Origin: a virus
Taxonomy: Duplodnaviria; Caudoviricetes
IMG/VR virus record: IMGVR_UViG_3300032285_001531
Reading direction: 5' to 3' (one strand)
DNA: 64,000 nt
A program made the translations under genes and the position numbers. This document shows positions 40,251-62,585 of the stretch, piece after piece. Below the pieces are notes generated by a model. The model saw only the letters and a list, made by a program, of their open reading frames with translations. It had not been told where the DNA came from and did not search any database. Positions within the stretch are counted from its first letter, which is position 1. Each line of letters begins with the position of its first letter.

Positions 40251-43200
40251 TTACGATGTTTTGGTTAAGCCTGCAGTGTGACTTAATCCTGCAGAAATGC
40301 TATTCCATTCATTGTAACCTATTTGAACTGGACTTGATTTACTAATAATAGTTTTATCACCTAATTGACCAATTGAGTTATTTCCCCATGCCCATAAACG
40401 ATAATTTGTATCTATTCCTACTGTGTAGCTAGTACCTGCTGACACTGCTAACCAAGTTCCGGTACCAACTTGCATTGGACTATAAATATTTGACATTGCA
40501 TACACGTTGCCCATTAATGTAGGATTTGATCTAAGTAGACCGCCGGCAGCAGCACCTTGTGCCAATCCTATACCTAAACCATCAGATCCCCAAACATATA
40601 ATAATTTATCATTAGATATACTTCCTGAATTAGTTCCCCAACCTGCAGCCATAGAATTAAATATGGTGCCAGAAGTAGTATTATCTTGTAGGGCAAGCAA
40701 TGTTACCTGAGAACCATTAATAGCTGAAATATTTGTGCCGAAATCTTGATACAATGTAAGTGGAATTGTCGGAACTGTAAAGTTTCCTGTATAAACTGCA
40801 ATACCATTTGTTATGCGCAAGTTAGATATAAAACCATTCATTTGATATGTACCATCAGCCATGCTACCTATGTACAATGTACCTGCTGTTGATGAATAGT
40901 TTGAGGTATCTGATACATCTGTACCTAATTTAGTACCATTCACAAAGAATCTACCGATACCTGAACCACGAACATATGCTATATGTGTCCATGTTCTAGC
41001 CGTTATAGTTACTGTAGTAGAGCTTGCATGAGTTGCACCTGTATTAGCTGCACCTGAATTAAAATACATAGTTGATGCTGAACCTACACCAAAATAGAAT
41101 CCCCAGTTACCTGCACCAGTGCCATATGAATAGTTAGAAGATACTAGTGTTATGTTAGTAGCTGCTGCACTTGGATATATCCATGCTTCAATTGTAAAGT
41201 CACTAGTACCAAATCCAGAGTTATTTGATGATACTGGAGTTGTTATATAATCACCTGTGCCGTCAAATGCACCACAACCACCATAGGTTGCAGTTGCATT
41301 GTATGGTGAACTAAATGGATTTACTCCACCAATATATGCATTACCTACTGCAGTTAATGTATTATTAGTTGATGTGTCTGCAAAATTTGTTCGTTTAGTA
41401 CTAACAAGAACTGGACTAGATTTACTAATTGCAGTAGTATCACCTAATTGACCTGAAGTTCCTATTCCCCAACCATATAGATATCCGGTAGCATCTACTG
41501 CCAATGAGTAACTCAATCCTGCTGAAATATTTGTCCAGCTAAGACTTTGGAATGCTGCGGCTAAAGGTCCAATAGTAGTACGATTAACTGTAGTACCAAT
41601 ACCTAATTGCCCCTGTGCATTATTTCCCCATGATCCAAGTGTACCGCTACTGAATATTGCTAATGTGTGATCATTTCCTGCTGAAACTTGAGTATAACTA
41701 CTTGTACCAATTTGAGTAGAACTTGAAAATGTAATAACACTTCCCTTACCCAACTGTCCTGAACTATTAAGTCCCCACATCCATAATGAACTATCTGATG
41801 ATTTAATTGCAGCAGTGAAGCTAGCACCTGCAGAAACTTGTTTCCAACTACCAGTACCAATTTGTATCGGACTACTTTGATTAACTGCAATATAGAAGTT
41901 ACCTACAACAACTGGACTTGATCTATTATTACTTGTGTTACTGAAATTCATTAAACCAAAGTTACTATTTGTATTCAAACCCCAAATATAAATTGATCCG
42001 GCACTATTACGTGCAAATGCAGTACTACCGCCTGCGGCAACTTGACTCCAACTAGTGGTAGTTCCAAGTTGTGTTGGACTTGAACGTGTGACTACATCAT
42101 TTTGTCCCATTTGACCTGCGTTGTTTAGTCCCCACATGAATAATGAACCACTTGTATTAATTGCACCACTAAAGCTTTGACCAGCAGCAAGTTGTGTGAA
42201 ACTTCCTGCTGCAGCTAGTACTGGGGATAACGTGTCTGTGTTCAACTGACTACCTAATGTATTAGGCCAACTCACAGGGTTAAATGCATTATTAAATCCA
42301 ACACGTCCGTCTAAACTATAACCCCATGCCCATAACTGACTAGTAGTATTTTTTGTGAAGAAATGTGCTTGTCCAGTTGATACTTGTGTTGTATTTGACA
42401 CCATTGTTGTTAATGGTAAATCTTGACATGCTAGTAATTGTGTGCTATATCCAGAACCACTTATTACTGATAGAGGACTTGATGGTGGAGTAAAGCTTGA
42501 GGTTCCTGTGTAGACTGCTAGGCCCTTAACAATTCGCAGATTTGATATAAATCTACTGTTACCACCGGTTCCGTTATATGCATCATATCCTATCCACATT
42601 GTGGCTAATGTGTTATAATCATTAACAACACCAGTATATGTACCAACATATGTTCCATTCATGTACAAGTATTCAACACCACTTTGTCTAGTCCATGCCA
42701 TATGATACCATACGTTAGGCTGTGTTGGGAACGTTGCGTTTGTAACTGCTATAGTATATGTGCCAGATGTTCCACCAGTATTAATATACATAAGTGGTGT
42801 AGGTTGTGCTTGGTCAATTAATCTACCACCACCACTAATACCACCATCAACTAATGCAAATAATTCTATAGTAAAATCTCCAGTACTAATAGACTGTGCT
42901 GAAGCAGAAGCAGTAGTTACAAGAGCTTTATAATTTGTGTTATCTAAGAATGCATAGAATGCTCCACCATATATGTATACATCATTGTATGGCGCAGCAA
43001 AAGGACTAGCAGGCATAGTAGCTGTTACAAAGTCCCATGCAAATGGATATTGACCAGTGCCTGAAGCAGATACGGTATAATTGCCTGACTTATCTGAAAC
43101 TTGTGCTAAAACGATATCTTTACCGTTTAATGTGCCTGGTCTTACTGGAATACTTGCTCCGGATACACCACGAGCTATATAATTGTTTGCTCCCCAAACA

Positions 43201-46200
43201 TAAACCACATTATTAGTAGAAACTGCACCTGTAATTGATTGTCCAACAGAAACTTGTGACCAACTTTGTGGAATATTTTGTCCTAATGCAGTAAGCTGAA
43301 TTGGGCTACCTGCATATTGACTGACACCTTGTGTTTGTCCGAATCCAAGTTGAGTTGGGTTTGATAAGTTGTTTGTAAAGGTGGTTCCTAATTGTCCTAC
43401 GTTATTCTGACCCCATCCCCATAGTGTACTATCACTTGAGAGTGCAAATTGTTGATAACTACCGGCAGCAACTTGGGTATAACTACTAGTTAATGTTCTA
43501 CCTTGATTATATGAATCAAAAATTCTAACACCAACTTGTGATGGTATTGATCTAGATGTTACTGAGTTATTACCTAATTGACCCTGTGCATTATAACCCC
43601 ATGTATATAATTTACCAGTAGTGGTTAATCCTAAACTTTGTGACCATCCCGCTGCAACTCCTGCCCAACTTTCAGTGATGCCAAAGTTAACTCTTACTGG
43701 TAATCCAGTGCCAGCATTAATAAAGTTGCTATTACCGATTAACACGGGGCTTGACTTACTAATTATACTAGCATCACCCAACTGTGATCCAGCTGAGTTG
43801 CTGCCCCATGCATATAATAAATTACCTGTAGTCACACTTGTAAAGTGGGTGGCACCTGCACTTATTAAATTAAAGTTGTACCCTGTGATTGATGCAGGAA
43901 CTAGCAATAACATAAATGTTGTACTGGCAGCAAATGTTGTGTTCACATTAGTTGTACTTGGGTATGCTGCTGCACTACCTGCACCTGTTGTTGCTAAATT
44001 CGCTAGTGTAGGTGTAGTAAAGTTACCTGTATATACTGCAGTACCTTTGTTATATCTGATGTTACTCATGTAACCGGCAAAGTATAAGTTATTATTAGGT
44101 GTTGTCCAGTTTGTTCTATCGATACCAAACCACATACCTAAATCACTTTGTCCAGGTGAAGGACTAAGGCTACCAGGCTGTGCTGCGCCCGGTGCAGAAA
44201 CAGAAACACCAGCAACACCATTTAGATATGCAGTTAAATTATTATTGTATCTTACAAGTGCAATATGATTCCATGCGTTAGCTGTTAAACTTGTTGAACT
44301 AGGATAAAAAGCTTGATATTGTGTAGCACTTGATGTACTACCACCGCTAATCCAAATATCAACATATGTATTGGTAATTGTTAATAAGAATTCAGCAACA
44401 TATGAATCAATATATGTACCAAAGTTTACGAGTGTTCTTGCATTTGTGTTTGTTGGGTAAGCCCATAATTCCATTGTGAAATCTTGACCTGCTGACCAGT
44501 TATACACACTTGTGTAACCGGTTGCGAATCCAAACATTTGTGTTGTGCCACTTAATGATTCTGAGAATCCTCCTGACACAGGACCAAATGTTGCTGAAAC
44601 TGCAGGTGCTCCTACAACAGGACTCACTGCTGCTTTTTGTGAACTAGCATCTGCTAACACCGTACCTAATAATACAGGAGCAGATTTTGCTATAACAGTA
44701 TTATCTGCTAATTGTCCTGAAGAATTTAATCCCCAGTTATATAATACTTTATCTGTTGTAGTTGCTGCACTGAATGATGTTCCTGCAGATACTAAGCTCC
44801 AACTTGTTCCTGCTGCAACAACTAATACCGGACTACCGGTTCCATTATTTACACCAGTAAAGCTAGTTCCAAGCTGAGTTGCACTTGAACGACTACTTAA
44901 TACTGATTGATCACCTAATAAACCTGCGTTATTTACACCCCATACATATGCACGCCTACTAGTATCTACAGCATATGATGTAGTATTAACAGCAGCCACA
45001 TTAGATACTGCTCTAGGACTTAATATATCTTTTGCTGCTAATAATACTGTTCCGCTTGCAATAGCTGCACTTGGATTGCCATTAACATTTGCACTTTGTG
45101 TTATTGTTAATGGATTAGCTGATGGAGTAAAGTTTGTTGTATATACAGCAGTACCTATTACCCATCTAAGATTACTAATTAATCCAGCGTAGAAAGTACT
45201 AGTGTTACTTGTGTCTCGTGGAACTGCTATATACCACAATCCATCACCTGCAGTACCTACAACTCCCCATGAAGTAGCCGGAGTATTAAGTGCTCCTGAA
45301 TAAGTTACATCAATACCATTAATAAATATTTTACTAGTTGAGCCGGTAAACACAGCAGCAACATGATACCATTGCCCAGGAGATACTCTTACTGTAGAAG
45401 TTGCTGCTGTTGTGAAGCCCGTTGCAACGGCATACCAACCAAATGAAACAAATGGATCGGCTGATTGTGATACTTGTCCATATGTGCCAATGTCAGCCTG
45501 AGCAGTTAATGCAAATATCAAATTAGTTGGACCTGCCGGAGAAATAACATTTTGTTCGCAAAATATTACACCGCCAATTGCAACTCCTGGAACATCTGGT
45601 ATTTGAAATATCCAAGCTTCAATTGTAAATGGAGTATTAGCTGTAGGTATAATATATGAATTTATTGCTGGCATACTTACGTAACCAGCTGTTGCTGATG
45701 ATTTTGTGCCTACAAATCTTATTGATCCGCCGTACACTGATGTATCATTATATGGAGCAGAGAAAGGATTAATAGGAACTGGGTAAGCACCACCTACACC
45801 AGTTAGTGTGTTTAAACCAGTTGCATCAGTAAAAGATACTGTAGTACCAACTGTAGATGGAATCACTCTAAAAGCAGTGGTGTTATCACCCAATTGACCG
45901 CTTGAATTAACTCCCCATCCATATAATCCATTTGTACTTGCTAATCTTGCTAGAGTATATGATGTTCCAGCAGTAACTTGAGTATAACTATAGTTATCTA
46001 CTTTACTAGGCACTGCGGTACCAGTAAATGTAACACTACCGACTTGTAGTGGGAAACTCTTACTAATAATAGTACTATCACCTAATTGACCACTTGTGCC
46101 TAATCCCCAATTCATTAAGTTTGAATTGTTAAGTGCACCTGTCCATGAGCCGCCTGCATTAACTGCTGTCCAGTTACTACCGTATCCTATTTGAACTGGG

Positions 46201-49200
46201 CTTGATCTAGATAATATATCGTTCTGTCCTAATTGACCTGTAGTGCCTAATCCCCATGCCCAAAGTGTAGTATCTGAACGTATCGCTGAACTATGACTTA
46301 TACCTGCATCTACTTGACTCCAACTACTTGTGCCTATTTGAACTGGCAATGATCTAATTACTGTATCACCAGTTCCCAATTGACCTATATTATTAGTTCC
46401 CCAACTGTATAAGCCGCCTCTAAACGAAATTGCAAGTCCGTGATTTATACCAACTGATACTTGCGTGTAGCTGCTTGCACCGGTACCAATTGATACAGGG
46501 CTTGATTTATTAGCTGAAGTGCCGTCACCGAGTTGCCAAGAAGTATTAAGTCCCCATGTAAATAATCTACCTATGGTATCAATTGCTGCAGTGAAACTTT
46601 GTCCTGCTGATACGATGCTCCAACTCGGAGTACCTGTTATTAATGTTGGAACAGATTTTAATACTACTGTAGTATCACCTAATTGTCCTACTGTGTTTGT
46701 TCCCCAAGTATATAATTTACCTGTTGCTGCTGTTATAGCTGCGCCATGATCTGTACCAGCAGATATTTTTGTCCAACTTAAAGTAGGACCATATACTTGT
46801 ACTAAGTTACTCTTGTTAACTGAAGTGCCATCACCTAAATTCCATGCAGTGTTTATACCTGCGGCCCATAGAGTGCCTTCACTACGTATTGCGAATGTTG
46901 TGTTATCGCCTGCACCAATTTGTGTATATGCACTCACACCACCTGTTGCCGCTCCTACTAATACTGGTATTGATCTGTTTAATGTATCCCCAGTTCCTAA
47001 TTGACCTGATGCATTGTTACCCCATGCAAATAACATACCGTCATTTCTTAGACCGACTGTATGTGATAAGCCGGATGCAATTTGTGACCATGAATTAAGA
47101 TTTGTGCCGATATCGGCCGCTTGACCCCAAGCATATAATTCACCTAATGAAGTAATTGCTGCGGCATGAGTGCCGCCTGCACTTACACTTGACCAACTCT
47201 TACCTAACCAGTTGCCAATGATAGTAGGACTTGAACGATTTAGTGTAGAGCCATCACCTAATTGATTCTGTGCGTTATTGCCCCACGAATACAATCTACT
47301 TGCTGATATAGCATAAGTTGAACTTATACTAGTAGCAACTGCAGTCCAACTACTTGAGCCTATTTGTACTGGACTTGAACGATTAGTTGCTGTGATACCG
47401 TCACCTAAACTACCAACTGCATCACTTCCCCATGCAAATAATCCACCGTCTGTTCTAATTGCATAAGAGAAGTTGCTACCTGCTGCAATAGTTGACCAGC
47501 TACTATTACCTACTTGAATAGGACTACTTTGATTAAATGTTGTGCCATCACCTACTTGACCACTACTGTTAAGACCCCATACATATAATTTACCATCATT
47601 ACGAATAGCCATGCTATGTGATACACCAGCAGCAACACTTGACCAGCTATTGAATGCACCAATTTGTGTTGGGCTTGAACGATTGATTGAGTCATTAGTT
47701 CCTAATTGTCCACTTGAATTAAGACCCCACGCAAATAATGCGCCGTCACTACGTATAGCCATTACATGTGATGCTGTTCCACCTTGACTTGATATTGATG
47801 TCCAACTCACTGGAAGTACAGCAACAAGTGCTGCATTAGGATTACCCCATGTCCATAGTGTATAATCTGAACGAACTGCAATACCATGATCAAATCCTGC
47901 TGCTACTGAAGTCCAACTACCTGATGTGATTTGAGAAGCACTTAAGTTTCTATCATATGTATTGACTGGATAACCAGTTTGATTTAAATTGTTTACACCC
48001 CAACCATATAATAAACCTGCGGTTGAAATACCCAATGTGTATGATGCACCTGCACTTACTTGACTCCATGAACCTGCATTTGATCCTATTTGCACAGGAC
48101 TTGATACATAAGGCCAGTTGCCTAATACAACTGCAACTGATCTATTTGTTACTGTAGTGCCATCACCTGCTTGACCATTAGTATTAATACCCCAATTAAA
48201 TAAACTGCCATCAGAACGAATTGCCCAACCATGCTGAGATGATCCTGCTGGTGCTTGATTAAATCTTAATGCTATTGCATTATTTGTAGTTGATACTGCT
48301 GGGTTTGATTTATTAACCGTTGTACCATCACCCAACCCACCGTTAGTGTTTAATCCCCATACTAATATTTTAAAACCAGTTGATGCTGCGGTTTGATCTG
48401 CGCCTGCTGCTAATGTTGTCCAGCTACCAATATAATCTGCTGTTAATACTTGTGTTGGTGTTGACCTATTAACTAAGTCATTCAAGCCTAATTGTCCACT
48501 TGCATTAAGACCCCAAGTATGTAATCTAAAATCTATTGTTGATGCAACAGCATGACTTGAACCTGCAGCTACTAATGTCCAACTACTAGAACCTATAAGT
48601 GTAGGTGCAGAACGATTTAATGTATCCCCTGTACCCAATTGACCTGCATTATTAAGTCCCCATGTATATAGGGTGCCTACATTAGTAATACCTGCTCTAA
48701 ATGTATGTCCTGTTGAAACTGCGTTCCAACTTAATGAACCGACTTGAGTTGGTATTGAACGTGTTAGTGCAGTACCGTCACCTACTTCACCTGATGTGCC
48801 TAATCCCCAACCAAACAATGCACCTGTTGATTTGATTGCATGTACTGTTGAACCACCTGCACTTACTGTAGTAAAGCTTGATGTGCTAAATGAGCCTGTT
48901 GCGGTTAATAATACTGGACTTGAACGATTAACTGAATCACCGGTACCTAACTGGAATGCATTATTAAGACCCCATGCATATATGATACCACTTGTGTTAA
49001 TAGCAGTAGTAAAGCTTGCACCCATTGATACTTGTGACCAGTTAGTTAATGCACCTACTTGCACCGGACTTGAACGACTTAATGTGTCACCTGCAACATT
49101 AACGTTTGTTAGTCCTAATTGACCTGCGTTGTTCAGTCCCCATGTCCATAATGTACCATCACTTCTTACAGCGGCTGATGAGTCTGACGATGTTGTTGCT

Positions 49201-52142
49201 GATATCCAGCTATTGTTCGTTGTACCATACGGACCTACTTGACCGTTAGTATTATTGCCCCAGCCCCATAATGTGCCGCCTAATTTAACAGCTAGTGCAT
49301 GATCGGCACCTGCAGTGATAGCTACCCAACTACTTGTACCAATTGCAGTAGGGCTTGAACGATTAACTGAATCACCAGTTCCTAGCTGATATACATTGTT
49401 GACACCCCATGCATACAATTTTTTATTTATATCTAGTGCTAACGAGAAGTCTTTGCCTGCAGCTACCAGTGACCAACTGCTTGTGCCTATTTGAATTGGA
49501 CTTGATCTGTTTAATGCTGCTTGATTATCACCAACTTGACCTGATGTACCTGTTCCCCATCCAAATAGTCCACCGTCACTACGCACGCCTAATGTATGAC
49601 TTGAACCGGCACTTAAACTAGCCCATGATTGCGGTTCTACTATAAGACCAACAGCACCTGAAAATCCCCATGTCCATAGTGAACCATCACTACGAATTGC
49701 AAGGGTATGTTCACGACCTGAACTAATTGCAGTCCAACTCCAGCCGGCAGCAACTTGCACTGGACTTGAACGATTAATCGTATCATTAACTCCTACTTGA
49801 CCTGAAGCATTAAGACCCCATGCATATAATGCACCTGTTGTGCTTATTGCAATACTAAATGAAAGTCCAGAAGCAGTTGTAGTCCAACTAGTGCTACCTG
49901 GTAAGATAGTATAATTAGACCTATTTACAACATCACCCAATCCTAATTGACCACCAGCATTACCACCAGTAACATACATTGCTCCTGAAGTACTTACTAA
50001 TAAAGTTTGATCTTCACCTGTAGATACTTGAGTAAATGATGTTGTAGCAGCACCTGTTATACTTGCTGCTAGTGTTGTGTAAATTAATAATGATGTACTT
50101 ACACTACTAAAAGTTGTGTTTACGTTTGCTGTACTTGGATATGCGGCTGCACTACCTGCACCTGAAATAGCTAATACTGCTTGAGTTGGTGGAGTAAACG
50201 TTCCTGAATAAACACCTGCACCGTTAACTATACGAAGGTTAGACAAATATCCACCTAAATAATAACCTGATGCAGTATAACCACCAATTGAAGGAGTTGT
50301 TGTAACTGTCCAGTTATTTGTATCAGTGAAAGCTAATTTCACTACCCCGTTTACAAATATGCGTGTATCATTTGTACCAGTAGTTACTCTACTAACTGCA
50401 ACGTGTGTCCATGTATTGAATGGAACATCGCCTGCATTTGTTTGTGCTACTGCACCAACAGCATATACACCTAAGTAAATATAACCAGTTGCATGTATTA
50501 AGAATTCAAATGCATTAGTTGCATTGCCAGCTTCAAATATTGCTCCCCAGGTTGGACTAATTGCTCGTAAGTATACCCATGTTTCAACTGTGTATGGATT
50601 TGTTCCAAATGCAAATGATGCGTTACTTGGTGTAGTCAAATAGTTAGCAACACCACTAAAATATCCAGATACTGCACCTGTTACTGGTACAATTGAAGTG
50701 CTTACAGTAGTGCCAAATCTAGTTATAGTATTTGTAGATGCTGTACTAACATCAACTACAGTAAAGTTTGCAGCTACTTGCACTGGCATTGATTTAGTTA
50801 CTACTGAATTATCTCCGCCTGCACCTTGTCCGTTATAACCCCAAACATATGCTGCACCATTAACATCAATAGCTGCGCTGTGCGTTTGTCCTGCTGCAAC
50901 TTGTGTGTAGCTACTCATGTATGATGCTAATGTAGGGCTTGTTCTGTTTGTTGCGTCATTAACACCCAATTGACCAAAGTTATTTAATCCCCAACTCCAT
51001 AATTTGCCAGTTAATTTATCAACTGCTAGTGTATGTGACATACCTGAAGCAACTGCAGTCCATGATATTGGTTGAACATATAACGCAACAGCAGCACCTT
51101 CACCCCATAACCATAGTGAACTGTCTTGCTTTATACCTGCAGAATGTGTATATGTTGCTGCTATATTTGTCCAACTACTACCTAATCCTATTTGAACTGG
51201 TAATGAGCGTGATGATACAGGGGCGAATAAACCTGCACCATCCATTGTACCTAATTGATTACTTGTGTTTAATCCCCAGCCATACATTTTACCTAAACTA
51301 TCTAAACCTAATGCATAACTGAATCCTGCGGCTATCTGTGACCAACTAACAGAAGGACTTGTGACTTGAACTGGACTACTTCTATTAATTGCATCATTAA
51401 GTGCTAGTTGACCGGATCCATTATTTCCCCATACAAACAATGAACCGTCTGCCTTAAGACCATATGTAGAATTGTTGCCTAAATAAATTTGATTCCATGA
51501 ACCGGCTACTTGAATTGGGCTGCTTCTACTTATTGTAGTACCATCACCAAATTGCCCTGAACTATTAGTTCCCCACATCCATAAGGTGCCATCTGACCTA
51601 ATTGCTGCTGCATGACTTGCATAACTTCCATTACCAGGAAGTTTTGCATATCCTGATCCTAATAATACAGGACTACTTCTGTTTGTTGTTGCACCAATAC
51701 CTGTTGCACCACTTGTGCCACCGCCCCATGCGAATAATCTATTATCTGATGTTATTGCTAATGTATAATATAAACCTGCGTATACTTGTGTCCATGAACT
51801 TATTGTAGTGCCTGAAGCTACTGGAAGTGCTAATGGATTTCCCCATGCATATAACGTGCCATCTGATTTAATTGCTAATGAATGATCTGTACCTGATTTA
51901 ACTTGGGTGAAACTAGTTCCTGTTAATAATTGAACAGGCGTTGATTTGCTGATTGTAGTAGCATCACCTACTTGACCTGATGTGTTAAGACCCCAGCCAT
52001 ATAATGCGTTAGTAGATTGAACTGCAGTTGTGAAATTATTACCTGCACTTACTTGAGTGTAGGAACTTGATCCAACTTGATTTGGACTAATATTATAATA
52101 AGGAGTAACATTTCCTATTATGGTGGGTAACGATCTTGGCAT
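40251..52142 (-). CDS. Giant RCC1/BLIP-II-type beta-propeller repeat protein (3963 aa) with five LamG/concanavalin-like inserts; putative virion adhesin
   Basis: Dozens of ~50-aa repeats (W..VSAG..H..AI...G.L..WG.N..GQLG....RSSP.Q.G). LamG cores FTVETW / FTIEAW / FTMELW / FTIELF / FTIEAW with W.H.A...NG...NLRI. Confidence 0.85.
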   Translation of the reverse strand: MPRSLPTIIGNVTPYYNISPNQVGSSSYTQVSAGNNFTTAVQSTNALYGWGLNTSGQVGDATTISKSTPVQLLTGTSFTQVKSGTDHSLAIKSDGTLYAWGNPLALPVASGTTISSWTQVYAGLYYTLAITSDNRLFAWGGGTSGATGIGATTNRSSPVLLGSGYAKLPGNGSYASHAAAIRSDGTLWMWGTNSSGQFGDGTTISRSSPIQVAGSWNQIYLGNNSTYGLKADGSLFVWGNNGSGQLALNDAINRSSPVQVTSPSVSWSQIAAGFSYALGLDSLGKMYGWGLNTSNQLGTMDGAGLFAPVSSRSLPVQIGLGSSWTNIAATYTHSAGIKQDSSLWLWGEGAAVALYVQPISWTAVASGMSHTLAVDKLTGKLWSWGLNNFGQLGVNDATNRTSPTLASYMSSYTQVAAGQTHSAAIDVNGAAYVWGYNGQGAGGDNSVVTKSMPVQVAANFTVVDVSTASTNTITRFGTTVSTSIVPVTGAVSGYFSGVANYLTTPSNASFAFGTNPYTVETWVYLRAISPTWGAIFEAGNATNAFEFLIHATGYIYLGVYAVGAVAQTNAGDVPFNTWTHVAVSRVTTGTNDTRIFVNGVVKLAFTDTNNWTVTTTPSIGGYTASGYYLGGYLSNLRIVNGAGVYSGTFTPPTQAVLAISGAGSAAAYPSTANVNTTFSSVSTSLLIYTTLAASITGAATTSFTQVSTGEDQTLLVSTSGAMYVTGGNAGGQLGLGDVVNRSNYTILPGSTSWTTTASGLSFSIAISTTGALYAWGLNASGQVGVNDTINRSSPVQVAAGWSWTAISSGREHTLAIRSDGSLWTWGFSGAVGLIVEPQSWASLSAGSSHTLGVRSDGGLFGWGTGTSGQVGDNQAALNRSSPIQIGTSSWSLVAAGKDFSLALDINKKLYAWGVNNVYQLGTGDSVNRSSPTAIGTSSWVAITAGADHALAVKLGGTLWGWGNNTNGQVGPYGTTNNSWISATTSSDSSAAVRSDGTLWTWGLNNAGQLGLTNVNVAGDTLSRSSPVQVGALTNWSQVSMGASFTTAINTSGIIYAWGLNNAFQLGTGDSVNRSSPVLLTATGSFSTSSFTTVSAGGSTVHAIKSTGALFGWGLGTSGEVGDGTALTRSIPTQVGSLSWNAVSTGHTFRAGITNVGTLYTWGLNNAGQLGTGDTLNRSAPTLIGSSSWTLVAAGSSHAVASTIDFRLHTWGLNASGQLGLNDLVNRSTPTQVLTADYIGSWTTLAAGADQTAASTGFKILVWGLNTNGGLGDGTTVNKSNPAVSTTNNAIALRFNQAPAGSSQHGWAIRSDGSLFNWGINTNGQAGDGTTVTNRSVAVVLGNWPYVSSPVQIGSNAGSWSQVSAGASYTLGISTAGLLYGWGVNNLNQTGYPVNTYDRNLSASQITSGSWTSVAAGFDHGIAVRSDYTLWTWGNPNAALVAVLPVSWTSISSQGGTASHVMAIRSDGALFAWGLNSSGQLGTNDSINRSSPTQIGAFNSWSSVAAGVSHSMAIRNDGKLYVWGLNSSGQVGDGTTFNQSSPIQVGNSSWSTIAAGSNFSYAIRTDGGLFAWGSDAVGSLGDGITATNRSSPVQIGSSSWTAVATSISSTYAISASRLYSWGNNAQNQLGDGSTLNRSSPTIIGNWLGKSWSSVSAGGTHAAAITSLGELYAWGQAADIGTNLNSWSQIASGLSHTVGLRNDGMLFAWGNNASGQLGTGDTLNRSIPVLVGAATGGVSAYTQIGAGDNTTFAIRSEGTLWAAGINTAWNLGDGTSVNKSNLVQVYGPTLSWTKISAGTDHGAAITAATGKLYTWGTNTVGQLGDTTVVLKSVPTLITGTPSWSIVSAGQSFTAAIDTIGRLFTWGLNTSWQLGDGTSANKSSPVSIGTGASSYTQVSVGINHGLAISFRGGLYSWGTNNIGQLGTGDTVIRSLPVQIGTSSWSQVDAGISHSSAIRSDTTLWAWGLGTTGQLGQNDILSRSSPVQIGYGSNWTAVNAGGSWTGALNNSNLMNWGLGTSGQLGDSTIISKSFPLQVGSVTFTGTAVPSKVDNYSYTQVTAGTSYTLARLASTNGLYGWGVNSSGQLGDNTTAFRVIPSTVGTTVSFTDATGLNTLTGVGGAYPVPINPFSAPYNDTSVYGGSIRFVGTKSSATAGYVSMPAINSYIIPTANTPFTIEAWIFQIPDVPGVAIGGVIFCEQNVISPAGPTNLIFALTAQADIGTYGQVSQSADPFVSFGWYAVATGFTTAATSTVRVSPGQWYHVAAVFTGSTSKIFINGIDVTYSGALNTPATSWGVVGTAGDGLWYIAVPRDTSNTSTFYAGLISNLRWVIGTAVYTTNFTPSANPLTITQSANVNGNPSAAIASGTVLLAAKDILSPRAVSNVAAVNTTSYAVDTSRRAYVWGVNNAGLLGDQSVLSSRSSATQLGTSFTGVNNGTGSPVLVVAAGTSWSLVSAGTSFSAATTTDKVLYNWGLNSSGQLADNTVIAKSAPVLLGTVLADASSQKAAVSPVVGAPAVSATFGPVSGGFSESLSGTTQMFGFATGYTSVYNWSAGQDFTMELWAYPTNTNARTLVNFGTYIDSYVAEFLLTITNTYVDIWISGGSTSSATQYQAFYPSSTSLTANAWNHIALVRYNNNLTAYLNGVAGVSVSAPGAAQPGSLSPSPGQSDLGMWFGIDRTNWTTPNNNLYFAGYMSNIRYNKGTAVYTGNFTTPTLANLATTGAGSAAAYPSTTNVNTTFAASTTFMLLLVPASITGYNFNLISAGATHFTSVTTGNLLYAWGSNSAGSQLGDASIISKSSPVLIGNSNFINAGTGLPVRVNFGITESWAGVAAGWSQSLGLTTTGKLYTWGYNAQGQLGNNSVTSRSIPSQVGVRIFDSYNQGRTLTSSYTQVAAGSYQQFALSSDSTLWGWGQNNVGQLGTTFTNNLSNPTQLGFGQTQGVSQYAGSPIQLTALGQNIPQSWSQVSVGQSITGAVSTNNVVYVWGANNYIARGVSGASIPVRPGTLNGKDIVLAQVSDKSGNYTVSASGTGQYPFAWDFVTATMPASPFAAPYNDVYIYGGAFYAFLDNTNYKALVTTASASAQSISTGDFTIELFALVDGGISGGGRLIDQAQPTPLMYINTGGTSGTYTIAVTNATFPTQPNVWYHMAWTRQSGVEYLYMNGTYVGTYTGVVNDYNTLATMWIGYDAYNGTGGNSRFISNLRIVKGLAVYTGTSSFTPPSSPLSVISGSGYSTQLLACQDLPLTTMVSNTTQVSTGQAHFFTKNTTSQLWAWGYSLDGRVGFNNAFNPVSWPNTLGSQLNTDTLSPVLAAAGSFTQLAAGQSFSGAINTSGSLFMWGLNNAGQMGQNDVVTRSSPTQLGTTTSWSQVAAGGSTAFARNSAGSIYIWGLNTNSNFGLMNFSNTSNNRSSPVVVGNFYIAVNQSSPIQIGTGSWKQVSAGASFTAAIKSSDSSLWMWGLNSSGQLGKGSVITFSSSTQIGTSSYTQVSAGNDHTLAIFSSGTLGSWGNNAQGQLGIGTTVNRTTIGPLAAAFQSLSWTNISAGLSYSLAVDATGYLYGWGIGTSGQLGDTTAISKSSPVLVSTKRTNFADTSTNNTLTAVGNAYIGGVNPFSSPYNATATYGGCGAFDGTGDYITTPVSSNNSGFGTSDFTIEAWIYPSAAATNITLVSSNYSYGTGAGNWGFYFGVGSASTMYFNSGAANTGATHASSTTVTITARTWTHIAYVRGSGIGRFFVNGTKLGTDVSDTSNYSSTAGTLYIGSMADGTYQMNGFISNLRITNGIAVYTGNFTVPTIPLTLYQDFGTNISAINGSQVTLLALQDNTTSGTIFNSMAAGWGTNSGSISNDKLLYVWGSDGLGIGLAQGAAAGGLLRSNPTLMGNVYAMSNIYSPMQVGTGTWLAVSAGTSYTVGIDTNYRLWAWGNNSIGQLGDKTIISKSSPVQIGYNEWNSISAGLSHTAGLTKTS

Positions 52143-55100
52143 TTATATTCCTATTTGTCCTGTTGAATCCTGGCCCCAACCATAAAATGTTCCATTTGAA
52201 TCTCTTGCTAATGAGAAGCCAGAACCCTTGCCTGCTTCTACTTGACTCCAACTACCTGATGCAATTTGTACAGGTGATACAATATTAATTTTATATCCTA
52301 ATATCACTGGACTAGACCTTGCATAAGTTGTTCCTTCACCTTGTTGTCCACTAGCACTTGTTCCCCATATATATAACGTTGCGTTATTATTTATCGCTGC
52401 AGAACCACCGATAGCAGTCCATGAAGTTGCTGTGCCTAATTGAGTTGGTACTGATATCGCTACACCTAATTGTCCTGTTTCATAAGTTGCTGCACCACCC
52501 CATGTATATAGGGCATAGTTACCTGCAAGTGCGGTAGTTATTCCCATGCCCCATGAACTACCTGCTGTTATCTGACTAAAGCTTGCAGTGGCAGCAGCAT
52601 TAGTAAGAACAGGGCTTGAACGAGCAATTAAATCAAATCTTCCAAGCTGATATCCACCGTTATCTCCCCATGAATATAATGCACTTGTAGTTGCTAGAAT
52701 ACCATATGTAAATGATAATGTAGCTTGTACTTGACTCCAACTTGAAGTTGCACCAATTATTACAGGGCTTGAATATGTTGCAACATTACCTATGCCCAAT
52801 TGTCCTGAAGCATTATTACCCCATGCTACTAATCTATAGTTAGTATCAATTGCTGTTTGATATGATTGTCCTGCACTTACTGAAGTATAACTACTTGTAC
52901 CTATTCTAGCAGGTAGATATTGATTAGTTGAAAGTGAACCTGCTGCACCGGTAGTTGTACCTATATTAACTGGACTACTTCTACTTTGTACATCACCCAC
53001 ACCTGTTTGTCCTGCATTACCGTTGCCCCATGTATATAATAATCCTAAACTAGATAATGCAGCCATGTGATCACCTGAATTGGCTCCTGTTGCTAGAGTA
53101 GAAAAGTTTACTGCTGCTAATACTTGTACAGGAATACTTCTGTTAACAGCAGTGTTAAAGCCTGTTTCACCATTTGTACCTAATCCCCATGCAAATAGAG
53201 TGCCATCTGTTTTTAGTGCTGCACTAATTCCGTTACCTGCTAAAACTTGACTATAACCACTTACACCCACGTTGATTTGTGTTGGGCTACTTCTACTTGC
53301 AGCAGTACCATATCCTAATTCACCGTTTACACCATTGCCCCATGCATATAAAGTGCCATCACTTCTAACTCCAACTGCATGAGTCATTCCTGCTGCTACT
53401 GCACTCCATAATCCTGTGCCTATTTGTACGGGAGAAGAACGATTAACTGTAGGGTCGCCGACAATACCAGCAGTATTATATAAACCTAATCTTCCGAATT
53501 GACCGGCACCAAATCCAAATAGTCTACCTGTACTATCAATTGCTAGTGAGAAGCTTTGTCCTGCACTTACTACAGACCAATTACTTAAACCTATTGGCGT
53601 TGGACTTGAATATGATGCAGCATTACCCTGACCTAATTCACCTGATGATCCTAATCCCCATGCATACAGTAATCCAGAAGTATCAATTGCTAGAGCATGT
53701 ATACCACCACCTGAAACTTTTGACCATGTTATTGAAGGTATAGTAACTTGTGTTGGACTGGATCTAAAAACACCATCCCTTAGTCCTAGTTGACCTGCAC
53801 CATTGCTTCCCCATGTCCATAGGGTACCATCGGGTTTAATAGCCAATGTAAATCCACCGCCTGCACTTATTGCACTCCAACTACTATTACCTACTTGATT
53901 TGGACTACTCCTACTTAATGTTGTACCATCACCTAATTGTCCACCTGTGTTACTTCCCCATGTGAACAATTTACCATCATTGCGAATACCAACAGTGTGT
54001 GAACCTCCTACAGAAATTGATGTCCATGACCAAATAATATTTTGTGTTGGCACAGTAGTGCCCCAGTAAAATAATTTTCCATAAGTGTCAATTCCTGAAC
54101 TGTGTTGGGATCCTGCACTAATAGCTGACCAACTATCACCTGCTGAAATTTGAACTGGACTTGAACGATTAATACTATCTGCGGCACCTAAACCTAATTG
54201 CCAGTTTGCATTACTGCCCCATCCCCATAATGTACCATCTGATTTAACAGCAAGTGTATGACTTGCACCTAAACTAATTTGTGAGTAATTACTTAATCCA
54301 CCTACTTGTACTGGACTACTTCTATTTGCACTATCGCCTACACCTAACTGACCAACTGCGTTATTTCCCCATGTCCATAGGGAACCATCGCTGCGTATTG
54401 CGGCAACATGTGTAATACCTGCAGTGGCATTGATTGCCATTTTTACTTGAGTCCATGAGTACAAACTACCTGCTGCTGGTATATATCCTACTTGACCTAC
54501 ATCATTTGCACCCCAGCCCCATATTGTGCCGTTTGTTTGTATTCCTAAGCTATGTGATATACCTGCACTTATTGAACTCCAGTTTGTTCCTGGTGCGGGA
54601 ACTTGTACTGGACTTGATGTATTCACCCCTGCTGGTACACTTGTCCATATACCTAATTGTCCATCACTATTTTTACCCCATGCCCATAATGTACCATCTG
54701 ATTTAACTGCAAGAGTATGACTATACCCCATGCTAATCTGACTCCAACTTGTACCAGTTGCTACTTGTACAGGATATGATTGATTTAAAACATTAGATAC
54801 TTGCGCTAATTGACCGCCAGTGCCTGTACCCCATACCCATAATCTACCTAGACTATCAACTGCACCGCTAGTGCTTAATCCTAAACTAACTTGGGTATAA
54901 CTGCTAGTACCTGATACAATTTGAGTAGGGCTTGATTTATTAACTGAAGTTCCATCACCTAATTGCCAACTACTATTTTGTCCCCACACAAATAATTGAC
55001 CTGCTGCATTAATACCTGAACTATGACTTGAACCTGCACTTATACTTGTATATAATATTGGACCACCTGAAATACTTGCTCCTGGTGTAGTATACAATAA

Positions 55101-58100
55101 TAATACTGTGTTAGCTGCGTTAAAAGTTGTATTCACATTTGTAGTACTCGGATAGGCTGCAGAACTAGTAGCACCTGAAACTCCTAATACTGCTAATGAT
55201 GGTGGAGTAAAGTTACCTGTATAAACTGCAGTACCTTTTACAAATCGTAAATTTGATACATACGCATTAAGATATGGTCCTACTTTAATTGTCGTAGATC
55301 CTGTAGTAAGAGCTTGATTAGTAAAGGTTGCAGTAGTACTTCCCACTCCATCAACATACAATCTATAAACACCGGACTGACGAACTATTGCAAAGTGATG
55401 CCACCCATCTGTATTCCAATTATATGTGCTGGATACAGTTCCTCTGTATCCTGACCATCCACCTTCAACACTTGACGCAAAAACCCAAACACCAGTAAAG
55501 CCAGGATTTGATATACCTAAAGTCCAAATGTTTGTACCATCTGTAACTTCTAATATCGCATCATATCTACCTCCCGCAACTACTAACCAATTTACAGGAT
55601 CTATCCAGCATTCTACTGTAAAATCTGTGCTTGCACCTATTGCATAATCTGTACTGACAGTGCTTAAAATATTAATATTGGTTCCCGGAAAATATCCAGA
55701 TACTGATCCTGTAACTGGTATAGTTGAAGTTGTATAGTTAGTTCCGTTATTATTAGTAATACTATGAGGAGTGTTACTAGAATCTACAATAATAACTCCT
55801 GCACCAACCAATACAGGACTATTCCTATTTACACTAGTACCATCACCTACTTGGAAAGCACTGTTTATTCCAACTGCCCATGTACTATTATCATATTGAG
55901 TGAACAATGTATGTGTACTTCCAGCGGACACTGACTTCCAACTAGATGCGTCAGTTGATATTAATGTTGGGCTGGATCTATTTACTGCATCTATTAGACC
56001 TAATTGACTAGAAGTGTTTAATCCCCAAACATATAATTTGCTTGTAGATACACCTGCTGCGTGAGTTGCACCTGCACTTATATTAGACCATGATCTAGTT
56101 GCAGTTAATGCACCTTGTTGCCCTAAAGTGCCTACTCCCCATGCAAATAACAATCCATCACTTCGCAGTGCCATACTATGACTGAATCCAGCAGCAATGC
56201 CAATCCAACTACTATCTGCACCAATTAGTACTGGACTTGAATATGATATTGCATCACCTGTTCCTAATTGATAGGTTGAGTTTAATCCCCATGCCCATAG
56301 TCTACCTGCCGAATCAATTCCTAATGTATGACTTGCACCTGCACTTACTAAAGACCATTGTTCTGCTCCCACTTGAACCGGACTTGAATATGTTATTGCA
56401 TTTATTTTACCTAATTGACCCGCATTGTTATTTCCCCATGCAAACAAATAACCGTCCCATCTAATTGCAACAGTATGTCCACCAGCACCTTCACTTATTT
56501 GAGTATAACTTAAATCAGCATTACTTGCATTTGTAGATGCAATTGGTCCCCAAGTATATAAACCAACATTATTAGCACCTATCGCAATAACATGATCTAA
56601 TCCTGCTGCTGCTTGACTAAAGCTATATGTTCCTAAAACTTGAACAGGGCTTGATTTATTAATAGCAGTGCCATCACCTAATTGTTGTGAACTATTAAGT
56701 CCCCATGTAAATAATACACCATCATTTCTAATTGCGCCTGAGTTGGCTTGTCCACTGTATATAAAATTCCAACTATTGTCCGTACCAATTTGCACTGGGC
56801 TGGATCTATTAATTACATCTCCTAAACCTAATTGTCCTAAAGAATTAGTTCCCCATGACCAAATTGTGTTATCACTTCTTAAACCAACAGCAAATGAATT
56901 TCCTTCAGTGATTTGAGTCCATGAGTAAGGTAAGCTTACTATACCTAATGCACCTGTTGCACCATTACCCCACGCCCATAATGTTAAATCTGATTTAATA
57001 GCTACTGAATGATCTGCACCTGCTGAAATTGAAACCCAACTATTTGAACCACCTACTAATGTAGGACTTGATTTAGTAATTGATGTGCCATCACCTAAAC
57101 GATAGTTATTATTAAATCCCCATGCATACATAGAACCAGTTGAATTAATACCAAGCATGTGACTTAAACCAACACTTACTTGTGACCAACTACTTGTCGT
57201 TACTTGAACTGGTAATGATCTAATAGTACTAGCAGTTTGATTACTACCAAGAATACCTGATGTATCAAGTCCCCATGTGTATAAGAAGCCAGTGGCTAAA
57301 TCAATACCTGCCGATGCAGAAAGACCTGCGCTTATCTTAGTCCATAGTTGAACAGGTGCGCTAATCTGAACTGGAATACTACGGTCAACTGAGTCAGCTA
57401 CACCTAATTGATATGATGCATTTAATCCCCAACCCCAAAGTGTGTTATCACTACGAATAGCAAGAGTAAAGTTACTCTTACCTGCTGAAACTGCATTCCA
57501 ACTACTTGTACCAACCTGTACTGGACTTGATCTATTGTTTGTATCTGTTGGTGTTACTGCTAGTGCACCGTTGGCACCTAATCCCCATTCAAATAATAAT
57601 CCATCACTGCGAATTGCTGCGGTATGAGTTGAACCTGCACTCACTTTACTCCATGATAGTGCTCCAACTTGAACAGGTGAGCTTGCTGATGCAATAACAG
57701 TGTTAATAACTAATACAGGAGTTGATTTATTAACTAATGAAGCATCCCCTAATTGTCCACTTGTACCTAAACCAGATACTAATAATAATTTATTGCCTAA
57801 TATACCATACCATGTTGCACCACCTGCTGACACTTGTGCATAACTACTTGTACCTATCTGAACAGGACTTGAATACGTTGTTACATTACCTTGTCCTATT
57901 TGCCCTGAACTGTTTAATCCCCATGCAAATGCTGCACCGTCACTTCTTAGTGCTGCAGTAAATGATAACCCTGCTCCAACTTGAGTATAACTGCTACCAG
58001 AACCAACTTGATAAGGACTGCCTGTTGCGGCAACAATACCTGTGTTCAAGTTACCAACGTTAGTTGGCACTGCTTTTGTTGCAATTGTTATATCACCAAC

Positions 58101-61100
58101 CTGACCACTTGTGCCTAATCCCCAACCCCATAATAAGTTGTTAGTTTGAATTCCAAATCCTGTCGCAGCAGTTGCAGCAACTTGAGTATAACTACTAGTA
58201 CCAGCGGCAGATACTTGAACTGGACTAGATTTAGTCACGACTGTATTGTCACCTAATTGACTACTAGTGTTAAGTCCCCATCCCCATAATGTGCCATCTG
58301 TTTTAGTTGCTAGGGAGAAACTTGTACCTGCTGCTACTGATGACCAGCTACCTGCTACCGCAGTAACTTGTACTGGATATGACATGGAACCCATTAATCC
58401 TGACGAACCTAATTGAACTGGGCTTGATTTTGTGATTGCTGTACTATCAGCTATTTGTCCTACATTATTAGTACCCCAGTTATATATTGTATTATTGGTT
58501 GCAATTGCACCAGCCCATTGATTTAGTCCACTACCAAATGAACCCACTGCATTGAAACTTGTACCTGTTGCAAGCTGAACCGGAGCAGATTTAGTTATAG
58601 CAGTATTATCACCTAATTGTCCACCTGTATTAACTCCCCAGCCCCATAGTGTACCGTCTACTTTTAGTGCAACATTAAAATCTAGTCCTGCTGAAATTTG
58701 AGTGTATGAACTTACACCACCTATACCAGCAGCAGCAACTAATACAGGACTACTTCTACTAACCGCAGTTGTGCCTTGACCTACTTGACCTGAACTTCCT
58801 ATTCCCCATGCCCACAATGTAGTATCTGATCTAATAGCAATTACATGACTTGAACCAACTGAAACTTTGTTCCATGTATTACCTGTTATTTGAGTTGGTG
58901 TACTTCTGGTAGCTGCTGTGCCGTTGCCTATTTGACCACTAGTACCTGCACCAAACATCCATAAACCGCCACCAGTATCAATTGCTCCTGTAGTTTGATT
59001 ACCTGCGCTCACTTGGCCCCAGGTTATACCACCTGGAACTATAGTAAGTGTTGAACGATTATTTAAATCACCTACTCCTAAATTACCACTTGTATTGATT
59101 CCAACGCCATACATGTTACCACTAGTATCAATAGCCATAAGACTGTAGTTACCGTTAGCTATTTTACTCCAATTAGTTGCAACACCTATCTGTGTTGGAC
59201 TACTTCGGCTAATACCCGTATCACCTTGACCTAATTGACCGTATGTGTTATCACCCCATGCCCATAATGTGCCATCTGATCTAATTGCTGAAGTATTTGA
59301 TGCTCCTGCTGCAACTACACTCCAACTACTAGTACTTACTAATATCGGACTAGTTGTACTTGCAAATGCAGTGTTGTTACCAAATTGACCTTGTGCATTA
59401 GTTCCCCATGCAAACAATAATCCATCATTTCGTATCGCAACACCATGTAGTTGACCTACAACTAGTTGTGTCCAAGAAAATACTTGGTTGTTTATTAATG
59501 TTGATGTATTAATTCCCCATAAATAAAGTTTGTTTGTTGAGCTTACTGCGAGTACATGACTTGCTCCTGCACTAACTGTATTATAACTTAATGGACCTAA
59601 ATTGAAGTAGTTACCAATCTGAGTAGGACTTGACCGTGTTGTTATCGTACCTTCACCTAACTGGCCACCACTATTTAAACCCCAACTCCATAAAGTGTAA
59701 TCTGTTTTTAATCCGATAGAATATGAAACACCTGCAGTTACTTTATTAAAATAATCTGATCCTACTTGTGATGGTGTACTGAAAGCAGGTACAGTCGAAT
59801 TTAATAATGAAAACGGTCCTGTTTTATTCAAGGTATCATTATTACCTATTTGACCATTAGAATTATCACCCCATGCATAATATCTAGGTTCAGTTGATAC
59901 TGCTGCAGCATTTACACCAATGCTACCTGCACTAATAAATGTATAACTAACACCCGGAGTAATTTGAGTGTAGTTTGAAACTTGAATAGAATTAGAATTA
60001 TAGTTAAGACCCAATGCACCAGTTTGATTTACGCCAGCAGAATATAATTTACCTAATGTGTCTATCGCATAAGAATTTTGAAAGTTAGCAGCAACTTGAG
60101 TCCAACTTGTGCTACCTGGAACAATAGTAGGTATCGATCTACCAGTTGACGTTCCTATACCCAATTGTCCACCGCCATTGCCACCCCAACTATATTTTTC
60201 ACCTAACGTAGTGATAGCATGTGATTGCAACCAACCGGCAGCAATTTGAGTCCAACTTTTTGTAACTGTTGTTATTTTTGTCGGGTTAGATAAACTTTGC
60301 GTATTATTATGCCCTAAGTTACCTGCTAAACCATAACCCCATGTAAATAAATTACCATCAGAAGAAATTGCCATGCTATGGCTTGAACCTGCACTTACTG
60401 CTGTCCAACTAGTTAAGCCATAATTTACAGGGCTTGATTTATTAATGGTAGTACCGTCACCTAATTGACCTAAATTGTTGACTCCCCATGCGTAAATTTG
60501 TCCTAATGTATTAGTTGCTAATGAGAAATTTGTTCCAGCGGAAACTGTTGACCAGTTAGCCAAAGCACCAATTTGTACTGGGCTGTTTCTATCTACAGTA
60601 GTACCTAATCCTAATTGTCCAGATGCATTGCTACCCCAAGCCCACAAAGTATTATCTGATTTAATTCCTAAAATATGTCCTGAACCAACACTCAATGTTG
60701 TCCATGAACCTGCAACTTGAACTGGACTTGATTTACTAATATTAGTACTATCTCCGATAGTACCATTGACATTATAACCCCATACCCAAAGAGTACCATC
60801 AGTTCGTATTAGCGCACCGTTGTTTCCATTATTATATGCTTTTGAAACCAAAGTATTTTCAGGAAAAACATTACCGCCTAATATAACACTGGCTTGTTGT
60901 CCCCATGCATACAATCTACTTGCACTATCAAGTGCTAACCCATGTAGTGTACCTAATGCTACGTTAATGAAACTTGTGCCTGCCGCAATTTGAACTGGAC
61001 TTGATTTACTGATTAATGTGTTATCACCTAACTGTCCACTTGTGCCTAGTCCCCAAGCAAATAATTTACCATCACTACTAACAGCAGCAGTGTGACTTGG

Positions 61101-62090: not shown

Positions 62091-62092
62091 TT

Positions 62093-62581
62093 TTAATTAG
62101 GTTCAATAGGCCAAATAAAGTCATATATATTTATTTCATTAGAAATGCACTGATTTGGAAGATCCCTTAGTGCTTGCCTATAATTTGCCCAATTTGTTTT
62201 CCATTCCTCATCATGAATAGTTTGAACATCTGCTAATTGTGTCCAGTCACTTTTTGATATACGACTGTCTCTTTCAATACGCACTGCAGCAAGTGCAGCA
62301 TTGAATAATTCTTCAGGAGTTATTGTAGTTGGAGGATAATCTTTGACTACCGCACGTTCATAAACTTTATTATCAGTGAAACTATAATCATAAGATTCTA
62401 TATACTGTGTGTTAGTATCGCAATGGACATATACTTTCTGAACAGAGTATATACCAAAATTGTTTAATGTTTCTTCATCATCTTTTAATAGATGTAGTCC
62501 ACTAATATGCTCCCAGGCTTTTGGAAGCAAATCCCATTTTTCTGCCACTTGATTATCTCTAACTACTGCGAATTCTGCCAT
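62093..62581 (-). CDS. Tail fibre assembly chaperone
   Basis: VRIERDSRI..SDWTQL.DV...W..YRQALRDLP...WP.EP. Likely start ATG 62581. Confidence 0.8.
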   Translation of the reverse strand: MAEFAVVRDNQVAEKWDLLPKAWEHISGLHLLKDDEETLNNFGIYSVQKVYVHCDTNTQYIESYDYSFTDNKVYERAVVKDYPPTTITPEELFNAALAAVRIERDSRISKSDWTQLADVQTIHDEEWKTNWANYRQALRDLPNQCISNEINIYDFIWPIEPN

Positions 62582-62585
62582 AATT

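Follow-up and report, generated by a model that had tools for sequence, protein, structure and literature searches.

The window analysed here, a stretch of 64,000 nucleotides (nt) from the IMG/VR virus record IMGVR_UViG_3300032285_001531 (Duplodnaviria; Caudoviricetes; phage record of 349,679 bp), carries on its minus strand two giant genes, termed A and B, which encode long arrays of RCC1 repeats and abut each other in the same reading frame. A single frame of 7280 codons runs through 62090..40251 (-) and contains one internal stop, the TAA of codon 3316, and the next codon is the ATG of gene B. The junction reads ...FYGWGQDSTGQIGI-TAA-ATG-PRSLPTIIGNVTPYYN..., and A thus ends in GQIGI and B starts with MPRSLPTIIG (junction peptide ...FYGWGQDSTGQIGI*MPRSLPTIIGNVTPYYN...). 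For a separate product of gene B, the expected N-terminal peptide is (M)PRSLPTIIGNVTPYYNISPNQVGSSSYTQVSAGNNFTTAVQSTNALYGWG..., and A is expected to end in ...GQIGI. The features of the locus are collected in Table 1.

Re-reading of the sequence bore out what a first-pass annotation had described at this place, namely the single 7280-codon frame with its one internal TAA-ATG, an AGGA 6 nt before the ATG and a junction about two residues shorter than the typical repeat. The stretch from GQxG to RSxP comprises four codons at the junction, the stop counted, compared with six residues in 46 of the 59 regular repeats and at least six in 57 of them. Methionine makes up 0.73% of the residues, so that an ATG straight after a chance stop is unlikely. 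The AGGA, which resembles a Shine-Dalgarno (SD) sequence, is invariant in seven aligned sequences, and AGGA or AGGAG is frequent 5' of ATG across the window. TAA is the most frequent stop codon of the window (30 out of 49), where no sign of an altered genetic code was seen.

Table 1. Positions of the two giant genes, their junction and associated features in the window.
Feature	Position	Strand	Remarks
Tail-fibre assembly chaperone gene (Phage_tail_APC)	62093..62599	(-)	PHROG tail fibre assembly matches
Giant gene A	52143..62090	(-)	3315 amino acids; Pfam matches PF00415, PF13540, PF25390
LamG cassette 1	55074..55790	(-)	Between strand D of blade 42 and strand A of blade 43; ring boundary
Putative shared seven-bladed ring, blades 57-63	51801..52889	(-)	From A: blades 57-61 minus the last strand; from B: strand D of blade 61 and blades 62-63
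Last blade of A (strands A-C and GQIG loop)	52146..52277	(-)	SPVQIASGSWSQVEAG..SLARD..FYGWGQDSTGQIGI; specialised C-terminal module
AGGA, Shine-Dalgarno-like	52149..52152	(-)	6 nt 5' of the gene B ATG; overlaps the Gly codon of GQIG
TAA stop of gene A	52143..52145	(-)	
ATG start of gene B	52140..52142	(-)	Abuts the gene A stop
Giant gene B	40251..52142	(-)	3963 amino acids; same frame as A
First 10 residues of B (MPRSLPTIIG)	52113..52142	(-)	Strand D absent from blade 61; putative donor strand, from the repeat register
LamG cassette 2	50079..50705	(-)	After blade 70; PF13385 (Laminin_G_3) on B and orthologs

Conservation of the junction in close and distant relatives

An identical gene A of 3315 amino acids, followed at once by a gene B of 3963 amino acids, was found in three other assemblies (ENA, ENA+JGI and Logan). 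The loci L080, L081, L082, L086, L087 and L088 all carry the identical GGAATATAAATGCCAAGATC junction, and neighbouring synonymous sites differ. L087 and L088 are near-identical to L082; L080, L081, L082 and L086 are distinct relatives. Over 600 nt around the junction, the relatives share 79-92% DNA identity with the window. The B ortholog P0022 is approx. 79-81% identical to B and starts with the same MPRSLPTIIG.

Both genes are under purifying selection according to Nei-Gojobori estimates of nonsynonymous (dN) and synonymous (dS) divergence and their ratio omega. Gene A gave an omega of 0.16 against L082 (dN 0.144, dS 0.884) and of 0.24 against L081, with an overall dS of 0.80-0.88, and gene B an omega of 0.18 against L080 (dN 0.160, dS 0.879). 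B is thus constrained as strongly as A, which implies that it is efficiently translated. A search for fused forms of at least 4003 amino acids detected none among the close relatives, where the sole close match was a B ortholog starting at the same Met, and a scan of IMG/VR with the junction region returned just generic RCC1 relatives with at most 38% identity. The comparison of orthologous loci as fused or split, which the first-pass annotation had proposed, hence showed relatives split at the same place and no fused form. The break is an old, selected feature, and it is very probable that the split evolved and yields two proteins.

In L080, a scaffold gap of ten undetermined bases (L080:2197-2206) shifts the frame, and the gene caller splits the A ortholog into pieces of 746 and 2335 amino acids. 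A second break of gene A in this relative was therefore rejected as an artefact of the gap.

Giant RCC1 proteins that are more distant (33-48% identity) break at the same loop: in many of them the C-terminus lies directly behind the GQLG loop, and many start with the strand that follows. Junctions were examined in four sets of distant loci (L089, L090/L091, L092 and L093), in which a tail-fibre chaperone gene is followed by two giant genes, sometimes by a third one, and then by the same downstream genes. The stop-start arrangement varies among them. L089 has GQLGL-TAA-ATG-PINSP, in frame, and L093 has GQLGLG-TAA-a-ATG-ANTSSP with an AGGA 4 nt before the ATG. The first junction of L092 reads WGDDSYGQ-TAA-ta-ATG-RSSPIQVG, and in L090, L091 and the second junction of L092 a GQLGDGT with an ATGA overlap is followed by MS(V/I)TRS.P. 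Stop and start lie on the same strand within -4 to +2 nt of each other across the relatives. Three of the four geometries (TAA-a-ATG, TAA-ta-ATG and ATGA) are out of frame and TAA-ATG is in frame. The position in the repeat and the tight stop-start are therefore conserved, but the reading phase is not, which favours two chains from coupled translation over read-through as the product under selection.

The middle giant gene of L092 had been called from an internal Met too far downstream (L092:20573-20650). Translation from the ATG that follows the upstream TAA at a distance of 2 nt yields MRSSPIQVG..., in agreement with both the repeat register and the N-terminus of P0171. In other phages, small RCC1 genes with a single propeller have their break elsewhere, namely at the domain end. 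Such genes of approx. 385 amino acids stand in tandem in L013, L014, L024, L033, L037, L058 and other IMG/VR loci, and each apparently encodes a self-contained ring. They have tight junctions (TAA-ATG, TAAtATG) and a common N-terminal MP..(Y)SGIW leader.

Position of the break in the propeller array

Repeats of approx. 50 residues of the RCC1 type are supported by Pfam matches on P0001 and P0002 and by 128 self-profile matches along the read-through chain. PF13385 is recorded for B and its relatives, not for A itself. In an AlphaFold2 (AF2) model of 1171 read-through residues, residues 1-358 (blades 50-56) form a confident ring that is followed by a disordered linker of 23 residues. This ring matched residues 19-381 of UVR8 with a Z of 55.9 and a root-mean-square deviation (rmsd) of 1.2 Å over 347 residues at 29% identity; the fold is thus seven-bladed, in agreement with length steps of seven blades in the family. 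DSSP assigned strands of 7, 4, 5 and 5 residues per repeat. As in UVR8, the ring opens with an 'SW..VSAG' strand and closes with an 'RSSPVQIG' strand.

On the basis of these strand lengths and of the colinearity of the model with UVR8, SW..VSAG was assigned as strand A (innermost), H..AI as strand B, G.LY.WG as strand C and RSSPVQIG as strand D. Under this model-based assignment, the break lies within one blade, where the long GQLG loop that contains it links strand C to strand D. An earlier reading, in which it fell between blades, was reversed by the same two observations, and the first-pass placement of the break inside one RCC1 repeat stood and was refined. A second AF2 model of 421 residues had a predicted local distance difference test (pLDDT) score of 80.5 and a predicted template modelling (pTM) score of 0.76, and placed both sides of the break in one ring. 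It uses all eight blades supplied, with a Z of 36 and an rmsd of 3.6 Å for UVR8 and a Z of approx. 18 for eight-bladed WD40 proteins. Both models show that the blades on either side of the break are able to pack next to each other, but they differ in the blades that share the ring.

Gene A encodes an N-terminal leader and 61 RCC1 blades, 42 before and 19 after a LamG cassette, and its product terminates in the GQIG loop that follows strand C of blade 61. Gene B encodes 51 blades, arranged as 9/28/2/4/6/2 around five LamG cassettes. Together these are 61 + 51 = 112 = 16 x 7 blades. A corresponds to 8 x 7 + 5 blades, the last one without strand D, and B to 7 x 7 + 2, so that the remainders of 5 and 2 sum to 7. 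Exactly 28 blades (4 x 7) lie between LamG cassettes 1 and 2, across the gene break, and the confident ring of blades 50-56 is in register with the count from the N-terminus of A. Taken together, blade counts and register place the break after strand C in the fifth blade of ring 9 (blades 57-63).

A opens with a half blade of strands C and D after a leader of 16 residues (62022-62090 (-)), and B closes with a half blade that has strands A and B only (40254-40382 (-)). These terminal half blades look like the two ends of one classical RCC1 domain, as if the array of 112 blades grew by internal duplication of one propeller.

Blades were also counted by an automatic rule, defined as the union of profile matches that end a blade and matches that start the next loop. 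It gave 112 for the window, 71 + 48 = 119 for the L090 pair and 54 + 31 + 62 = 147 for the L092 trio, all of them multiples of 7. In the family, seven out of 13 type-I second proteins (the position of B) had a remainder of 2 (51, 58 and 65 blades) and 14 out of 23 type-II second proteins a remainder of 6 (48, 55, 62 and 97). Type-I first proteins cluster at remainder 5 (47, 54, 61 and 82). A remainder of 0 occurred in none of 13 type-I and four of 23 type-II second proteins, and in none of 14 type-I and 10 type-III first proteins. Blade numbers that differ by exact sevens (48/55/62, 51/58/65 and 47/54/61/82) indicate that length changes by whole rings with a fixed overhang; insertions and deletions seem to add or remove whole rings.

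The B ortholog P0200 of L082 comprises 58 blades, compared with 51 in B, and its LamG cassettes are one fewer (9/37/4/6/2 versus 9/28/2/4/6/2), with a whole seven-bladed ring where the window has a LamG cassette. P0190 of L093 contains a glycine-rich low-complexity insert of 218 residues inside its RCC1 array (residues 2738-2956). An automatic counter on a 25-residue core profile undercounted gene A (55 versus 61 by eye) and was discarded. Short repeats and 'double-strand' long repeats were not reliable as markers of ring ends.

The termini on both sides of the break are specialised. The last blade of A has the motif SPVQIASGSWSQ..AG..(L/F)ARD..Y.WGQD..GQLG, and its best match is the very C-terminus in five out of six distant first-position proteins. 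Likewise, the first 50 residues of B have their best match at residue 1 in seven out of nine distant second-position proteins. The motif ARD..Y.WGQD..GQLG was seen only 9-10 residues from the C-terminus, in ten proteins, and the C-terminal motif was fused to the N-terminal one in none of 302 proteins. The N-terminal M(P) is conserved in 13 type-I partner proteins. First-position proteins share a leader (MFFRDLLLKAQ.. and similar), which second-position proteins including B do not have. A profile search with the junction module against 1.84 billion representatives was dominated by summed repeat scores and added few examples of the terminal modules (P0206, P0207 and P0245).

In each of the blades flanking the break, the loop behind strand D contains a short extra insert that resembles a strand (YKINIV-SPVQIAS and NVTPYYNI-SPNQVG; 52200-52270 and 52085-52125 (-)). 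The inserts are conserved in distant type-I partners and have pLDDT values below 50 in AF2. They might clamp the joint.

Genomic setting and interpretation

A tail-fibre gene and the tail-fibre assembly chaperone gene lie directly upstream of gene A, and a tail-fibre gene together with a Phage_tail_APC gene was found there in all syntenic loci as well. PF16778 was recorded on the orthologous chaperone gene in L081, L082, L084, L085, L089, L090, L092 and L093. The start of the chaperone gene is uncertain, the called product of the relatives having 162 amino acids. The window also includes ribonucleotide reductase genes, and L081 has a Gp23-type capsid gene and tail-fibre genes upstream of the same module. 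The setting of the module and this capsid gene point to a large T4-like phage, a jumbo phage of approx. 350 kb that is known only from metagenomes. At 62088-62095 (-), the chaperone stop is followed by the start of gene A as TAA-aa-ATG, with a gap of 2 nt and no obvious SD sequence. From this junction, the chaperone, A and B may form one coupled translation chain.

The cultured-phage collection contained no close relative and only distant small RCC1 genes in Synechococcus phages. In the cultured T4-like cyanophage Synechococcus phage S-SRM01 (L094; NC_070963.1, 216-232 kb), three small RCC1 genes occur in a region of baseplate-wedge and long-tail-fibre genes. Genes for glycosyltransferase, sulfotransferase and 2OG-oxygenase are interspersed between them, a similar pairing of RCC1 with sugar-modifying enzymes.

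In the reading favoured here, A and B would be separate giant proteins, each making up one of the successive segments of a single fibre-like appendage of the virion. The genes follow each other in the order chaperone, A, B, and each start lies 0-2 nt from the preceding stop; for this reason B is probably translated in step with A, by coupled re-initiation at AGGA-N6-ATG. A would end in an open arc of 4¾ blades and B would open with the missing outer strand and two blades (2¼), and the two proteins would lock non-covalently by completing one seven-bladed ring. The product would resemble a string of beads, with 16 propellers and six LamG domains scattered among them. In related phages, two or three gene boundaries appear to follow this principle, with different stop-start geometries and a different phase of the ring (1 + 6). 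That A and B share one propeller ring, and that this ring joins two coupled polypeptides, is regarded as probable, albeit with reservation. The first-pass annotation had listed, as one of three options, a gene fission in which both proteins complete a shared blade in trans. Completion of a shared propeller in trans is the best-supported reading, because the break is conserved, the termini are specialised and conserved in position, and the counts of 61 and 51 add up to 16 x 7. Fission itself is one possible direction of evolution between fused and split forms, no fused form having been found.

The two other options of that annotation fared worse. A recent nonsense mutation in a single ancestral gene, or a sequencing or assembly error, would account for the in-frame arrangement but for nothing more. 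It was refuted, and can be dismissed almost with certainty, by the identical junction in several independent assemblies and samples and in five distinct diverged relatives, by purifying selection on both halves with B open and constrained over a dS of approx. 0.88, and by the ATG and AGGA being in place. A programmed read-through of the TAA in a fraction of ribosomes, with the fused fibre of 7,280 residues as a functional or needed minor form, agrees with the in-frame abutment of A and B in the window phage, its close relatives and L089, and with the AF2 read-through chain, which folds into a continuous ring. Yet the frames are in phase in the window clade and L089 only and out of phase in L090, L091, L092 (both junctions) and L093 (ATGA overlap, TAA plus 1 nt, TAA plus 2 nt), so that a read-through fibre is not a conserved product. 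The ATG, the N-terminal 'MP' and the SD-like AGGA are conserved, the constraint on B implies efficient translation of its own, and the stop in question is the main one of the phage. Nor was a stimulatory RNA element detected at or after the stop: four to eight sequences showed no shared structure, and their fold energies did not differ from those of shuffled controls (z -0.5 to +1.6). In the window clade, a 10-bp stem of UUAUGG.UGGG with CCCACCAUAA (52113-52181 (-)) brackets the SD sequence, stop and start; it was rejected as a signal, as it had no covariation, an energy no better than shuffled sequences and no counterpart in the distant loci. Read-through to a functional fused fibre is considered highly improbable, although it might occur at a low level in this phage.

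A more serious competitor holds that A and B are two independent proteins which do not join, that the shared break point reflects no more than how the array was duplicated or cut, and that each incomplete terminal arc closes in another way, for example on another virion protein, on the chaperone or by self-association. Several points speak in its favour or weigh against a shared ring. The binding of A to B is a deduction, and the virion location of both proteins is putative, being suggested by the gene neighbourhood. AF2 leaves the N-terminal strand of B unplaced, since MPRSLPTIIG has a pLDDT below 50 in both read-through models; moreover, the models disagree on the make-up of the ring, which the model of 1171 residues seems to draw from residues 580-974. 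P0190 does not fit remainder 5, and the remainders of first-position proteins with a type-II end are scattered. Lastly, the automatic rule gave 120, 160 and 139 blades for three other gene sets, each one off a multiple of 7; a reading of the gaps by eye corrects them to 119, 161 and 140, a curation that was not blind. Against independent, non-joining proteins stand the remainders of cognate partners: they sum to 7 in the window, as they do in two further gene sets under the automatic rule. The N-terminal leader that first-position proteins conserve is absent from B, and the terminal modules, which are clearly better conserved than other parts of the proteins, always belong to neighbouring genes with a tight stop-start. 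On balance, this explanation is judged unlikely.

With regard to the wider family, we propose tentatively, as a possibility somewhat short of even, that giant RCC1 fibres of jumbo phages consist of two or three polypeptides joined by 'split-propeller' connectors: every gene would stop within a seven-bladed ring that the following gene completes, and distinct cognate types would fix the order of the subunits. The connector of phase 5+2 would pair WGQD..GQLG with MP.xSP..LGN, and that of phase 1+6 GQLGDGT with MS.TRS.P.QV. If true, such connectors would be a new general way to assemble very long virion appendages and a natural set of orthogonal connectors. A shared ring would be a natural split beta-propeller that serves as a structural joint and that many uncultured large phages have conserved. 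Appendages of 16-23 propellers (7,000-11,500 residues) could then be explained without a single enormous gene, distal parts could be exchanged as cassettes, and self-assembling, possibly orthogonal protein connectors would become available. For annotation, giant genes that abut in frame in phage metagenomes should be neither merged nor labelled as pseudogenes.

Comparison with known systems

Fibres encoded by several genes are known, as is the completion of propellers in trans. The open-access literature searched contained no case of a conserved gene break within an RCC1 propeller as the joint between giant phage proteins, and no description of split giant RCC1 fibre genes. The long tail fibre of T4 consists of gp34, gp35, gp36 and gp37, trimeric beta-structured rods that are joined end to end with the help of assembly chaperones. 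As in T4, consecutive genes would here encode consecutive segments of an appendage, beside a fibre-assembly chaperone gene in a T4-like genome. In contrast to T4, the segments are strings of RCC1 propellers and LamG domains, the gene break lies inside a propeller, and the virion location is putative. In chaperone-usher pili, many identical pilin subunits with an Ig-like fold are connected by donor-strand complementation. Similarly, each subunit would use its N-terminal strand to complete the last fold unit of the subunit before it, in a head-to-tail manner, but here two or three different giant subunits would be involved and the donated part would be a strand plus two blades.

The closest counterpart at the level of the fold is Sec13, an open six-bladed propeller that is closed in trans by a blade from its partner Nup145C, Sec31 or Sec16 (PMC2922654). 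In both cases, the beta-propeller of one chain is incomplete and a second chain supplies, or is proposed to supply, the missing part, which results in a stable heteromer in the case of Sec13. Sec13 differs in being a eukaryotic WD40 protein with 6 + 1 blades and an alpha-solenoid partner, whereas the phage propeller is of the RCC1 type, would be divided into 4¾ + 2¼ (or 1 + 6) blades, has propeller arrays on both sides and forms a putative complex. The structures of UVR8, the HERC2 RLD and RCC1 share the seven-bladed propeller fold. They are, however, single closed rings in one chain, and not up to 16 rings in series with one divided between genes. Finally, adjacent genes that are translationally coupled through TAAATG, ATGA or TAATG are ordinary. 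The pairs described here share with them a stop and start within -4 to +2 nt and an SD-like sequence inside the coding region of the upstream gene, and they are unusual in the place of the boundary within the protein fold.

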